DNA of 64,000 nucleotides, taken from NCBI GenBank assembly GCA_964346665.1, contig CAYFVC010000067.1, positions 987-64,986 of the forward strand. Reading direction: 5' to 3'. The position numbers and the translations under genes were made by a program. Positions 3,905 to 29,415 of the stretch are shown here, piece by piece (position 1 is the stretch's first letter; every line of letters starts with the position of its first letter). The notes below the pieces were generated by a model. The model saw nothing but the letters and a program-made list of their open reading frames with translations. It ran no database searches and was not told where the DNA came from. The DNA comes from an uncultured archaeon (GTDB lineage: Archaea > Aenigmatarchaeota > Aenigmatarchaeia > QMZP01 > QMZT01).

Positions 3905-4132
3905 ATGGCAATCAAAAGAGACGAGGTCCACCCGGTTGAGATCAACAAAAAGCTGACCTTGATAATTTCTTTAGTATTTCTGATAGCAGTCCTTTTGCTG
4001 ATCTACCTGATCACTTACTCATTCGTTAATCTCGACCCGTTCATAACCCTCATACTGGTAATAGTTCTGATGATAGTTGTTGTGGTGGGGATATTCGCAC
4101 TGGACGTCTCAACATTCAGGGAAGTTCACTAA
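3905..4132 (+). CDS. Small membrane protein (2 predicted TM helices), hypothetical
   Basis: The 75-aa ORF is mostly hydrophobic (LTLIISLVFLIAVLLLIYLI; ILVIVLMIVVVVGIFAL). An A/T-rich TATA-like element lies just upstream. Confidence 0.35.
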   Translation: MAIKRDEVHPVEINKKLTLIISLVFLIAVLLLIYLITYSFVNLDPFITLILVIVLMIVVVVGIFALDVSTFREVH

Positions 4133-22835: not shown

Positions 22836-22947
22836 GCCTCGGTAGCTCAGTGGTAATTTCGTAGGAAGCAGATTACATCTGCTTCGATCGCTAGGGAGCG
22901 TTCGCTTGGTAAGCGAAAGGTCGCGAGTTCAATCCTCGCCCGAGGCT
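22836..22947 (+). tRNA. tRNA-Thr(GGU) with a ~37-nt intron in the D-loop (non-canonical position)
   Basis: The acceptor stem is 7 bp (gcctcgg/ccgaggc). The D-stem is gctc/gagc. The anticodon arm ttcgc-ttGGTaa-gcgaa is uninterrupted. The T-arm is gcgag-ttcaatc-ctcgc and the discriminator is t. About 37 extra nt lie between the D-stem halves and contain a perfect 9-bp hairpin (gaagcagat-tac-atctgcttc). Confidence 0.7.
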
Positions 22948-26516: not shown

Positions 26517-27533
26517 ATGTTAAAGCAAACGAAAGAAATGCTAGAGGCGTTGAAAACCCCAGAATCATACGATTCGCCTGTTAAGGAAATAAGCTTAATT
26601 CAAACGCACATTTCCTGGGTCTTTCTGACAGGAGACTTCGTTTACAAGATAAAGAAGCCAGTGGATTTCGGGTTTCTCGATTTCACCACACTCGAAAAGC
26701 GGATGAAGTTCTGCAAAAAAGAGCTCGAAATCAACCGGATGTTTTCTCCGGAGATGTACATTGATGTTCTCCCCGTGAACAAATTCGACCACATGATCAA
26801 GATAAACGGGCCGGGGGAAACGATAGACTACGCAATAAAGATGAAGCAGCTTCCCCAGGAAAACCTCATGAACAGGCTGTTGGAGAAGAACCTGATTGAA
26901 ACAAAGACCATTGACAAGATCATTGATATTATTATCGATTTCTACTCAAAGACCCAGACATATACAGACCCACATTCCATAGGCTCTCTTGAAACCGTTA
27001 AATTCAACTGGAAGGAGAACTTTAGACAGACCCGCCCTTTCATCGGGGAAACGATCGACCAGAAAACATTCGATACGATCGAAAGGAAAGTTTCTGAATT
27101 CATGGAGAAAAATAGCGAGCTATTCAGCAAGCGCCTTCGCGAGGGGAAAGTCAAGTGGTGTCACGGGGATTTGCACTCAGGGAACATTTTCGTTGTGAAC
27201 GAAAAGATATACATATTCGATGCGATCGAGTTCAACGAGCGCTTCGCTTGTTCGGACGTTGCAAGCGATATAGCATTCTTCTTGATGGATCTCGATTTCC
27301 ATCACAGGAAATTCCTTTCCGATTATTTTCTGAAAAGATACGTAGAGAAAACCGGGGACAGCGAAGTAACAAAATTCCTTGATTTCTACAAGTGTTACCG
27401 GGCGTTTGTGAGGGGGGAGGTGACAGGATTCAAAATTAACGATCCCAATGTGCCTGATTTCGAAAAGAAGGAGGCGAAAAACACCGCCAAGATGTACTTT
27501 CAGCTCGCCCTCGAATACGCGAAGAATTTCTAA
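26517..27533 (+). CDS. Protein-kinase-like phosphotransferase (APH/choline-kinase fold family)
   Basis: It has a catalytic-loop motif (HGDLHSGNIF) followed by a D-x-x-E-F-N-like metal-binding segment (IFDAIEFNERF). Both are hallmarks of APH-family kinases. Confidence 0.55.
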   Translation: MLKQTKEMLEALKTPESYDSPVKEISLIQTHISWVFLTGDFVYKIKKPVDFGFLDFTTLEKRMKFCKKELEINRMFSPEMYIDVLPVNKFDHMIKINGPGETIDYAIKMKQLPQENLMNRLLEKNLIETKTIDKIIDIIIDFYSKTQTYTDPHSIGSLETVKFNWKENFRQTRPFIGETIDQKTFDTIERKVSEFMEKNSELFSKRLREGKVKWCHGDLHSGNIFVVNEKIYIFDAIEFNERFACSDVASDIAFFLMDLDFHHRKFLSDYFLKRYVEKTGDSEVTKFLDFYKCYRAFVRGEVTGFKINDPNVPDFEKKEAKNTAKMYFQLALEYAKNF

Positions 27534-27850
27534 GTTTTCTTTTTCTTCTTGAGCATCCCATTCATGGACTCTTCTCCGTAAAGGGTTTGCTCATAGAGTT
27601 CAGGGTATTTCTCAAGAATTTCGATACCGTTGAGGTTCGGATCGCTTATCTCCCACACGTAAGAATTCTTCTTTTTGTCAAAGTTTTTTCTTACAAACCC
27701 GGTTTTTTCCAGAACCACCATGTTGGGGACGAGGGTTTCGAGGTTTCTTGGAGATTTGTCTGCGACGTGGTTTATGATCTCGTTCGTGGTCACAGGCCTG
27801 TTCTGTTTCTCCAAAAGTTCCTTCAGCAGGTTGAAAGTTATTATCGGCAT
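27530..27850 (-). CDS. Hypothetical small protein (possible winged-helix)
   Basis: The 106-aa ORF has a 4-nt overlap with the convergent kinase gene end and a C-terminal poly-Lys tail. The family assignment is weak. Confidence 0.3.
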   Translation of the reverse strand: MPIITFNLLKELLEKQNRPVTTNEIINHVADKSPRNLETLVPNMVVLEKTGFVRKNFDKKKNSYVWEISDPNLNGIEILEKYPELYEQTLYGEESMNGMLKKKKKT

Positions 27851-27852
27851 GT

Positions 27853-28185
27853 TCAGACCGCCTTTATGAATTTACACTCTGGATCGACTTCCACGAAGTG
27901 TTTCGCTCTCCCCTCCCTGAATTCTCTGCACTGGTTTTCAGGAATATTGTCAACATTTTCCCTCGGCGAGTGAGCGACATCGCAAACCCAGTCTTCCACA
28001 TCCCAGTTCGGATTGTCGTCCGAGAGGCAGGGACCGTTCGAAAGATCTTCACCGGCTGACAACTTAGTTTCACATAACTCTCTGCACATCTCTACTTCTA
28101 TATCCTCATCCTCTGGAAATACATATACATCTACACAACCAGAAACTAGTATAATTCCCACCAAAAATATGAGAATCCACCTCAA
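27853..28185 (-). CDS. Small secreted Cys-rich protein (lipobox-like LVSGC signal)
   Basis: It has an N-terminal signal peptide followed by eight Cys and an acidic region. It is adjacent to the preceding ORF. Confidence 0.4.
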   Translation of the reverse strand: MRWILIFLVGIILVSGCVDVYVFPEDEDIEVEMCRELCETKLSAGEDLSNGPCLSDDNPNWDVEDWVCDVAHSPRENVDNIPENQCREFREGRAKHFVEVDPECKFIKAV

Positions 28186-28234
28186 ACAATCACCCCATTC
28201 AAACTTGGTTCTTTGATTTAAAAATTATCAATGT

Positions 28235-28951
28235 TTATACAATCTTGAAGTAAACCCTACGGTTGTTCTTTCCCTTGTTCTCCGCCTTGAGGAATTCGAT
28301 TTTCCCTATCTCTTTCGTGGATTTCACATGAGTCCCACCATCAGCTTGTATGTCAAATCCTTCGATCTCCACTATCCTGAGTTCCTTTATGCTCGGGGGG
28401 AGAACGTTTGCGAGTTTGGTGATGTTCTCTATTTTCATCGCCTCTTCCCTCGGGAGGAAATACATTTTCACGTTCAGGTCTTTTCCCACGATCTCGTTCG
28501 CCTTTGCGAAATACTCGGACATCTTCTCCCTGTCGAAGTCCTCCAGGCTGAAGTCTATCCTTGATTTGTTGAGATCAAGCTGGTTTCCCGTTATCATCGC
28601 ACCAGAATCCTTGTGAAAAACCTCTGAAATTATGTGAGCCGCCGTGTGCATTCTCATAAGTATATATCTCCTCTCCCAGTCTATCGTTCCCTTTACCACA
28701 TCGCCTTCTTTCAAGCCTTCTTTCGAAACTTCATGCGATATTTTCCCTGAGAACTTCCCGACATAAACCACCGGGTACTCCACACCATCCTTCACGAATT
28801 TCCCTCTATCGTGTGGCTGCCCTCCAGAATTCGGATAGAAGGCGGTTTTATCGAGCACGACGAAGAATTTATTCTCCCCGCCTTTCGTTACACTAACGAC
28901 ATTCGCCTCGAACCCCTTCAAATACGAATCATCCATGTAAAGCGCATTCAT
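28235..28951 (-). CDS. alaX: AlaX-type alanyl-tRNA editing (trans-editing deacylase) domain protein
   Basis: It has HxxxH (HTAAHI) and a C-terminal GGTHV motif typical of the AlaRS editing domain / AlaX-M. The 238-aa length fits. Confidence 0.8.
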   Translation of the reverse strand: MNALYMDDSYLKGFEANVVSVTKGGENKFFVVLDKTAFYPNSGGQPHDRGKFVKDGVEYPVVYVGKFSGKISHEVSKEGLKEGDVVKGTIDWERRYILMRMHTAAHIISEVFHKDSGAMITGNQLDLNKSRIDFSLEDFDREKMSEYFAKANEIVGKDLNVKMYFLPREEAMKIENITKLANVLPPSIKELRIVEIEGFDIQADGGTHVKSTKEIGKIEFLKAENKGKNNRRVYFKIV

Positions 28952-28953
28952 AA

Positions 28954-29049
28954 TAGCGGGAGGTGGAGACTCACCTCCCGAAGAAGGTTTTGAACCACCG
29001 ACCTCTGGGTTATGGGCCCAGCGAGCACTCCAGGCTGCTCCATCCCGCT
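28954..29049 (-). tRNA. Initiator tRNA-Met(CAU) with ~21-nt intron in the T-loop region
   Basis: On the minus strand the gene reads agcggga-tg-gagc-agcctggagt-gctc-g-ctggg-ccCATaa-cccag-aggtc-ggtgg-ttcaaa[21 nt]t-ccacc-tcccgct-a. A1:U72 and three G:C pairs in the anticodon stem are initiator features. The extra 21 nt sit inside the T-loop. Confidence 0.7.
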
Positions 29050-29115
29050 ATGCAGTGTATTTCGTGGGAATGTTATAAATAGTTTGTATTTTAATATTTA
29101 ATTACTATCTAAGGG

Positions 29116-29415
29116 GTGTCTTGTTTGGAGGAAGATGAAGTTCTAATAACAGACATATTCAAGAAGGTAACACAGGAATTGGGGAATCTCGAGATGGAGA
29201 GGAAGATCCTTGCGGACTTGATCAAGGACCTCAGAAAAAAGATAAAATCCCTTGACCGAAGGGAAGCGAGACTGCGTTCCCAAATAATGGAACTTGTTAA
29301 GAATGAAACACAGCTCAGCAAGAGAAAGGTCAGGCTGGAAAAGAGACTCGAAAAAACGAGAAAGAAATTGAAAAAAATCTCCGAGGCCAAGAAGTCGCTT
29401 TCCGAAGCGTTTTAA
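29116..29415 (+). CDS. Hypothetical coiled-coil protein
   Basis: The 99-aa ORF has heptad-like charged repeats (LRKKIKSLDRREARLRSQIMEL). No family was recognised. Confidence 0.35.
   Translation: MSCLEEDEVLITDIFKKVTQELGNLEMERKILADLIKDLRKKIKSLDRREARLRSQIMELVKNETQLSKRKVRLEKRLEKTRKKLKKISEAKKSLSEAF

Follow-up and report, generated by a model that had tools for sequence, protein, structure and literature searches.

In Thermococcus kodakarensis, the 5' leader of TK0306, 159 nt long, contains the tRNA-Lys gene TKt3, and the two seem to be co-transcribed (PMC4247193). In Nanoarchaeum equitans, tRNA-Val and the C/D-box small RNA sRNA8 form a dicistronic precursor, and RNase Z cleavage automatically sets the 5' end of the RNA that follows the tRNA (PMC3491384). 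Here we describe a locus with features of both, found in a 64-kb stretch of contig CAYFVC010000067.1 from an uncultured archaeon (64,000 nucleotides, hereafter the window), in which a gene for initiator tRNA-Met (iMet) with an interrupted T-loop is followed after 2 nt by alaX, predicted to encode an alanyl-tRNA trans-editing protein. We put the probability at about three in four that this is a functional iMet gene of an Aenigmarchaeota-like DPANN archaeon, that it carries a 21-nt bulge-helix-bulge (BHB) intron at position 59/60, and that it forms one transcription unit with alaX.

As in T. kodakarensis, a tRNA and a downstream protein gene would here share one primary transcript, but the T. 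kodakarensis tRNA is embedded in a long leader, whereas in the window it lies only 2 nt from the ATG, so that 3' processing of the tRNA would itself define a leaderless mRNA. As in N. equitans, the host belongs to the DPANN archaea and the second gene directly follows the tRNA without an apparent promoter of its own; the product there is a small RNA, however, and in the window it is an mRNA. A further parallel is the tRNA punctuation of mitochondria, reportedly described by Ojala, Montoya and Attardi in 1981, in which excision of tRNAs from a polycistronic transcript is said to yield mRNAs that start at or next to AUG. Excision of the tRNA in the window would likewise set an mRNA start at or near AUG, but the mitochondrial arrangement is genome-wide and organellar, whereas here one locus is concerned, in an archaeon that otherwise has ordinary promoters.

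The intron has precedents as well. Positions 59/60, 20/21 and 53/54 are catalogued as non-canonical intron positions of archaeal tRNAs (PMC4090602), and DPANN lineages have more disrupted tRNA genes together with broad-specificity endonucleases (PMC5829648). Like the non-canonical BHB introns of Thermoproteales, Nanoarchaeota and ARMAN/DPANN, the predicted intron in the window has hBHBh' geometry and a site outside the anticodon loop, and orthologues of the window iMet gene carry multiple introns. The intron transposition of Thermoproteales is matched by one intron hairpin that occurs at different positions and in different tRNAs, as described below. What differs is the host, which is Aenigmarchaeota-like, the gene, which is an initiator tRNA, and its physical fusion to the start of an mRNA. 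A preliminary description of this DNA had called the arrangement unusual, which holds only in a relative sense: introns at 59/60, disrupted tRNA genes in DPANN archaea, and co-transcripts of a tRNA with an mRNA or a small RNA are all already known from earlier reports.

The initiator tRNA gene and the start of alaX

The locus comprises the following features.

28954..29049, minus strand: initiator tRNA-Met gene, a 96-nt pre-tRNA with CCA not encoded; A1 is at 29049 and the discriminator A73 at 28954
28989..29049, minus strand: 5' exon, tRNA positions 1-59, with the anticodon CAT at 29016..29014
28968..28988, minus strand: predicted 21-nt BHB intron at position 59/60, ACCTTCTTCGGGAGGTGAGTC, recognized by BHB decomposition and as a hairpin in the minimum free energy (MFE) fold
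28954..28967, minus strand: 3' exon, consisting of U60, the T-stem 3' strand CCACC, the acceptor 3' strand TCCCGCT and the discriminator A
28952..28953, minus strand: 2-nt spacer TT from the discriminator to the alaX ATG, expected to be the first bases of the alaX mRNA after the putative RNase Z cut
28235..28951, minus strand: alaX, predicted AlaX-M-type alanyl-tRNA trans-editing protein of 238 aa, from the open reading frame (ORF), Pfam and PDB

The minus strand from 29049 to 28954 reads AGCGGGATGGAGCAGCCTGGAGTGCTCGCTGGGCCCATAACCCAGAGGTCGGTGGTTCAAA (5' exon), ACCTTCTTCGGGAGGTGAGTC (insert) and TCCACCTCCCGCTA (3' exon), and continues directly past the discriminator with TT and then ATGAATGCGCTTTACATGGAT, the start of alaX. 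The iMet gene was missed by ARAGORN with and without its intron mode, also at a lowered score threshold, and by Rfam at the gathering threshold; the sole tRNA that ARAGORN called in the window lies at 22881-22947, and Rfam at gathering likewise returned only that locus. A permissive Rfam search (E-value mode) gave a partial tRNA match to the iMet locus, at 26.2 bits against a cut-off of 29, with an alignment that fails in the T-arm, and gave no second tRNA-Met-like match in the window. With the 21 nt from 28988 to 28968 deleted, ARAGORN called a clean 75-nt tRNA-Met(CAU) with an acceptor stem of 7 bp, a D stem of 4 bp, anticodon and T stems of 5 bp each, and the T-loop TTCAAAT. Even with the insert in place, the MFE fold of the 96 nt (-43.3 kcal/mol, z = -2.55) is a cloverleaf that bears one additional hairpin, inside the T-loop.

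The initiator marks A1:U72, A11:U24, G29G30G31:C39C40C41 and the anticodon CAU were all read from the sequence and the ARAGORN drawing. Related loci, numbered with the prefix L, were gathered through AlaX homologues and through a metagenome scan with the 27-nt string that spans the anticodon arm and variable loop. This string is identical to that of the eukaryotic and archaeal initiator genes recovered, and the scan returned mostly eukaryotic initiator tRNAs, which confirms the initiator identity, besides about a dozen usable archaeal loci of the clade. The preliminary description had recognized an initiator from A1:U72, the GGG/CCC anticodon stem and CAU, all of which are present and agree with the ARAGORN call after excision, and it had placed the 21-nt insert of the T-loop exactly, with GGTGG on one side and CCACC on the other. 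It had also given 3 nt from the tRNA to the alaX start and 18 nt to the next Met, which is right for coordinate differences: A28954 and the ATG at 28951 differ by 3, that is, by 2 intervening bases, and the next ATG, at 28936, differs by 18.

That the gene beside the tRNA is of the AlaX trans-editing type, as had also been proposed, is borne out by its Pfam and PDB matches. The predicted protein scores above the Pfam cut-offs for tRNA_SAD (1.6e-14) and for the editing region of alanyl-tRNA synthetase (AlaRS; 1.5e-13), and in the PDB it matches the AlaRS editing domain of 2ZZE (1e-34) and the Pyrococcus horikoshii AlaX-M 2E1B (2.3e-25), with an alignment that begins at residue 3. An in-frame stop lies in the tRNA anticodon loop, and no start codon comes between it and the ATG at 28951; a start further upstream was sought within the tRNA, and none lies in frame before that stop. 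Met6 was considered as the true start and ruled out, since the A-L-Y that precedes it is conserved in all homologues, whose N-termini all read M-x-(x)-A-L-Y-M/L, and aligns to the solved structures. Because of these conserved N-termini, and because the structures align from residue 3, Met1 is taken as the start of alaX.

Among public AlaX entries, the calls for P0003, P0006 and P0010 (263-275 aa) and for P0022 extend AlaX through the tRNA (e.g., LAGPITQRSVVQN) or start at ATT. Such calls are annotation artefacts caused by the undetected tRNA.

The T-loop insert and the conservation of the exons

The insert shows a complete BHB decomposition. The central helix has 4 of 4 pairs, formed by U54U55C56A57 (UUCA) and a UGAG close to the 3' terminus of the insert, and two 3-nt bulges on opposite strands flank it, A58 A59|A and U C|U60. 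A UUCG loop closes the 5-bp inner intron helix (CCUUC/GGAGG), and the outer helix is the T stem, GGUGG/CCACC. Cuts after the second base of each bulge take out exactly 21 nt and leave the T-loop UUCAAAU. Excision at the bulges restores a standard tRNA, and L103, an orthologue without the insert, reads exactly TTCAAAT there. By its predicted structure, the insert is an archaeal BHB (hBHBh') intron in which the canonical 37/38 geometry has been moved to the equivalent place in the T-arm.

Ten loci, the window included, have an insert at exactly 59/60, and these inserts represent three unrelated sequences: one of 19-21 nt (window, L081, L085, L141, L127 and L184), one of 34-35 nt (L094, L145 and L186), and one of 11 nt (L138). 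Three to four of the four central-helix pairs are kept in each, and the hairpin is preserved through the intron changes, as CCTTC/GGAGG, CTTCC/GGAGG, CTTCC/GGGGG or CCTC/GAGG. L083 has its T-arm intron at 53/54 instead, with a BHB that we read by hand as CGGU:GCCG with the bulges GG|A and AA|U.

The exons are nearly invariant. Those of the window are identical at 75 of 75 positions to the exons of L085 and of L141 and at 74 of 75 to those of L081, while in the same three pairs alaX DNA is 73-83% identical and the intron 86-90%; the 66 nt upstream of the tRNA are 59-62% identical in L081 and L085 and 83% in L141. Since the exons stay near-identical while the neighbouring alaX DNA diverges, the locus is, on comparative grounds, more than a chance resemblance and probably a functional initiator tRNA-Met gene. 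Exon conservation, the fixed site with unrelated inserts, and the insert-free L103 together argue that the inserts are genuine BHB introns that are spliced, and that the tRNA is under strong purifying selection.

Promoter and terminator signals around the junction

Two further elements bear on how the pair of genes may be transcribed.

29073..29079, minus strand: TATA-like box TTTATAA, its centre about 27 nt before nucleotide 1 of the tRNA, a probable promoter of the tRNA and alaX
28220..28224, minus strand: T5 run within ATAATTTTTAAAT, 11 nt past the alaX stop, judged from its letters a possible end of the tRNA-alaX unit and/or the TATA box of the next gene

A/T boxes at an equivalent distance precede the iMet genes of L081, L085, L141 and L184. 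At the start of the window tRNA, position -1 is T and position +1 is A. From this context and the spacing of the box, the primary transcript may begin at the mature 5' end of the tRNA, as a leaderless tRNA of the kind known from N. equitans. The tRNA-Thr gene of the window (22836-22947) does not have the spacing of about 27 nt; its A/T box lies about 35 nt upstream.

For protein genes, an A/T-only run of at least 7 nt between -45 and -18 of the start codon was taken as a promoter element. Such runs precede 37 of 57 window genes, compared with 16% of random positions, and a Shine-Dalgarno (SD) motif is present in only 8 of 56. For most genes the A/T box falls about 25-40 nt ahead of the ATG. 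The common A/T boxes and the few SD motifs indicate that the mRNAs of the window are probably mostly leaderless or short-leader, with SD motifs on internal operon genes. No A/T-only run of at least 7 nt occurs in the 60 nt before the alaX ATG, which consist of G+C-rich tRNA sequence. There is also no T5 run between the tRNA and alaX, the earliest one after the tRNA being that at 28224, 11 nt beyond the alaX stop; the tRNA-Thr gene, for its part, is trailed directly by T-runs, CTTTTGCTTTTTCTC. At the level of sequence, then, the two genes lie on the same strand with a 2-nt spacer and with no promoter or terminator signal between them.

The arrangement in related lineages

The order of tRNA and then alaX is kept in about 10 related lineages whose AlaX proteins are 73-91% identical to that of the window. 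The loci of the clade fall into the following forms.

2-nt junction identical to that of the window: L081/L082 (AlaX 91%), L085/L120 (73%) and L184 (about 87%, with a three-intron iMet gene)
Spacer of 20-29 nt, carrying an SD motif but too short for a promoter: L141 (GAGGTGG), L094/L145 (GGGGTGAT) and L186 (GAGGTGAT)
20-nt spacer with only a weaker G-rich match, AGGGGTTGG: L127
Spacer of about 135 nt with a tRNA relic: L083/L084/L136
alaX without a tRNA: L185 (AlaX 80%) and L187 (70%)
iMet followed by other genes of the window cluster: L138 and L103

A 2-nt junction is also deduced for P0006 from its translated extension. In L083, L084 and L136, an intact iMet gene is followed by T-runs, a terminator of its own, and then by a relic before alaX. 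The L083 relic (about 3905-4000; also present in L084 and L136) consists of an A/T box, TTTAAATTTAA, the letters AGCGGG, an internal deletion, and a T-arm/intron remnant, AAACCTTCTCAGGAGGTGAT. By this composition, the relic is an old tRNA copy that has decayed in the L083 lineage, apparently with its promoter end kept before alaX, the outcome expected if alaX depends on the tRNA promoter.

The link between the tRNA and alaX has been lost in L185, L138 and L103. At L185, alaX has an A/T box of its own, spaced as is usual for leaderless genes, and at L187 its own A/T box plus an SD motif. A homologue of the gene at 27853-28185 directly follows iMet in L138, where alaX is absent, and in L103 a homologue of the gene at 27530-27850 follows iMet, past a T-run and an A/T box of its own. 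Because the arrangement varies among relatives and is absent from distant alaX loci, the linkage is thus best described as clade-specific, evolutionarily labile promoter sharing, and probably not as a universal or obviously functional coupling.

A proposed route to the alaX mRNA and its alternatives

Archaeal tRNA maturation involves RNase Z cleavage after the discriminator of a precursor without CCA, cutting by the splicing endonuclease at the BHB bulges, ligation, and CCA addition. At this locus, transcription would begin at or just before tRNA nucleotide 1, under the TATA box some 27 nt upstream, and would continue into alaX, since the genes have no terminator between them and a second promoter would not fit. 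RNase Z would cut after the discriminator A73, freeing the pre-tRNA and an effectively leaderless mRNA that begins 5'-UU-AUG, which would suit this genome, where the majority of first genes appear to be leaderless. The splicing endonuclease would cut both 3-nt bulges (A58A59|A and UC|U60), RNA ligase would join the exons, and CCA would be added. We infer each of these steps, namely the transcription start, the read-through, the RNase Z cleavage, the splicing and the leaderless translation, from features of the DNA.

A bolder proposal follows from this route: in the Aenigmarchaeota clade, the mature 5' end of the alaX mRNA would be made by RNase Z after iMet and not by transcription initiation, as a single-locus form of tRNA punctuation. 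The resulting 5'-P-UUAUG mRNA would be leaderless and functional, AlaX synthesis would be tied to iMet transcription, and relatives would swap this form with an SD-led form by gain or loss of a 20-29-nt spacer. For this proposal as a whole, we regard the chances for and against as evenly balanced.

The co-transcription that the preliminary description had thought probable finds indirect support in the lack of an A/T promoter element before alaX, the lack of oligo-T between the genes, the conserved gene order, and the TATA box of the L083 relic, all of which point to a shared unit. Several considerations weigh on the other side. A promoter of tRNA strength would over-produce alaX mRNA unless that mRNA is unstable, and a 5'-monophosphate mRNA with a 2-nt leader is not known to be translated in the lineage. 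The linkage is not universal, as the L185 (80%) and L187 (70%) alaX genes, each with its own A/T box and no tRNA, make plain. A profile scan of genome contigs with the AlaX alignment gave further matches, listed at no more than 68% identity and mostly from Chloroflexota and Bathyarchaeia, and at 80 more distant alaX loci among the matches listed, an anticodon-arm regular expression found no iMet gene within 3 kb.

Alternative explanations concern either the tRNA or its relation to alaX. That the 21 nt stay unspliced, leaving a tRNA with an expanded T-loop, or that the cloverleaf arose by chance, is hardly credible: the z-score of the fold is modest, at -2.55, and 3 of 200 shuffles fold equally well, but the insert has exact BHB geometry at a site catalogued for introns (PMC4090602), and relatives carry unrelated inserts at the same phosphodiester bond or, in one case, no insert. 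A decaying pseudogene, retained as promoter or leader of alaX while a functional iMet gene lies elsewhere, has a model in the L083/L084/L136 lineage, where exactly this fate is seen, and would agree with the failure of ARAGORN and of Rfam at gathering to call the gene. We nevertheless consider it very improbable, because cloverleaf, BHB geometry and every initiator mark have survived intact, the exons are conserved at 74-75 of 75 positions beside DNA of 59-83% identity, the hairpin has been kept through changes of intron, and the true relic in L083, with its internal deletion, looks very different.

If the tRNA is a working gene, it might still be expressed independently of alaX, its transcript ending near its 3' end and alaX having a promoter within the tRNA gene or its intron. 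Archaeal promoters within genes and operons are known, and alaX is apparently run from its own A/T box in L185 and L187; against this stand the absence of any A/T run of at least 7 nt in the 60 nt before the ATG, the absence of oligo-T between the genes, the tRNA constraint on the exons, and the fact that a TATA box about 27 nt upstream of alaX would fall in the intron/T-stem sequence GGGAGGTGAGTCTCCACC, which is unlike any TATA. We judge independent expression improbable. Co-transcription could instead be combined with translation of alaX through the SD-like sequence GGAGGUGA in the intron, or with control by the order of splicing and 3' processing. In line with this, GGAGGTGA occurs in the intron of all loci with a 2-nt spacer (window, L081, L085 and L184), the other intron family (L094, L145 and L186) has an SD motif in its longer spacer instead, and AGGAGGTGAT is retained in the L083 relic. 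The motif ends 19 nt before the ATG, however, a distance greater than a normal SD allows, and makes up the 3' side of the intron hairpin, where a purine-rich strand is expected of any CCUUC/GGAGG helix; in L141 and L127 the motif occurs together with a spacer, whose SD is clear only in L141, and the sample is about 10 lineages. With its distance from the ATG and its place within a hairpin, GGAGGTGA is unlikely to be the alaX SD, and we give this alternative very little weight. Co-transcription of a functional, spliced iMet gene with alaX remains the preferred reading.

The AlaX protein and the neighbouring genes

The homologues closest to the window AlaX, at 91-73% identity, carry the name Candidatus Aenigmarchaeota; Woesearchaeota and other DPANN archaea supply the next tier. 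A query for proteins identical to the window AlaX in an assembly collection returned none. In domain content and length class, the protein resembles P. horikoshii AlaX-M (PH0108, PDB 2E1B). Of its zinc motifs, HTAAH is present and the second reads DGGTH, not CGGTH (residues 203-208, A-D-G-G-T-H). All 18 aligned relatives have the Asp, and hundreds of genomes contain a match to the peptide QADGGTHV; the solved AlaRS homologues 2ZZE and 2ZTG have ACGGTH, with Cys, whereas the subfamily of the window AlaX has ADGGTH.

Downstream of alaX lie two further genes on the same strand.

27853..28185, minus strand: 110-aa gene product with a signal-peptide/lipobox-like N-terminus and no Pfam match, preceded by the SD motif GGGGTGAT
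27530..27850, minus strand: 106-aa gene product with weak winged-helix-like matches

On the other side, an ORF at 29116-29415 on the plus strand is divergent from the tRNA and 67 nt away from it. It would encode a Lys/Glu-rich coiled-coil protein of 99 aa with weak Pfam matches only, and homologous reverse-strand ORFs of 96-101 aa are found upstream in relatives.

Other tRNA introns in the window and in related iMet genes

The tRNA-Thr(GGU) gene at 22836-22947 on the plus strand also appears to be interrupted, by a BHB intron of about 39 nt in the D-loop with the central helix UGGU:GCUA, and by hand reading the mature tRNA would have 73 nt. Rfam matches the full 112 nt at 60 bits, and ARAGORN calls a wrong 67-nt gene that starts within the intron. 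The hairpin of this D-loop intron, GAAGCAGAT-N3-ATCTGCT(T)C, is the same as that of the 59/60 introns in the iMet genes of three related genomes (window, 22865-22885; L094, 867-885; L145, 2318-2338; L186, 2428-2446), where the chance expectation is none. This suggests one intron family that may move between tRNAs and positions, as described for Thermoproteales.

Each of the orthologous iMet genes has between 1 and 3 introns, and these occupy at least six positions.

Acceptor/position-7 region: L103
D-loop, about 14/15: L127 and L184
D-loop, about 20/21: L083, L094, L145, L186 and L138
Canonical 37/38: L184
53/54: L083
59/60: most loci

Such variety among close relatives points to rapid intron turnover.

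Implications

The combination of an iMet gene with a 59/60 intron, set 2 nt from a leaderless-type alaX start and conserved in an Aenigmarchaeota clade, was undescribed in the literature searched, where we also found no description of tRNA introns specifically in an Aenigmarchaeota-like lineage. With the varied introns of the iMet orthologues and the hairpin that tRNA-Thr and iMet have in common, the rapid turnover described for Thermoproteales introns reaches into Aenigmarchaeota. There are practical consequences for annotation: the iMet gene of this lineage is invisible to ARAGORN and Rfam at their defaults, so that such genomes will be scored as being without tRNA-iMet, and gene callers translate through the undetected tRNA, giving AlaX entries of 263-275 aa with tRNA-derived N-terminal extensions.

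We see no sign of a dedicated functional tie between iMet and AlaX; the linkage resembles the sharing of a promoter in a compact genome and has come and gone among relatives. The series of junctions in these relatives, with a 2-nt spacer, a 20-29-nt spacer plus SD, a relic promoter or a promoter of alaX itself, amounts to a small natural experiment on how an archaeal gene may switch among promoter sharing, leaderless initiation and SD-led initiation. If the leaderless alaX mRNA is indeed made by RNase Z, the locus would be a clean archaeal case of tRNA processing that sets the 5' end of an mRNA.

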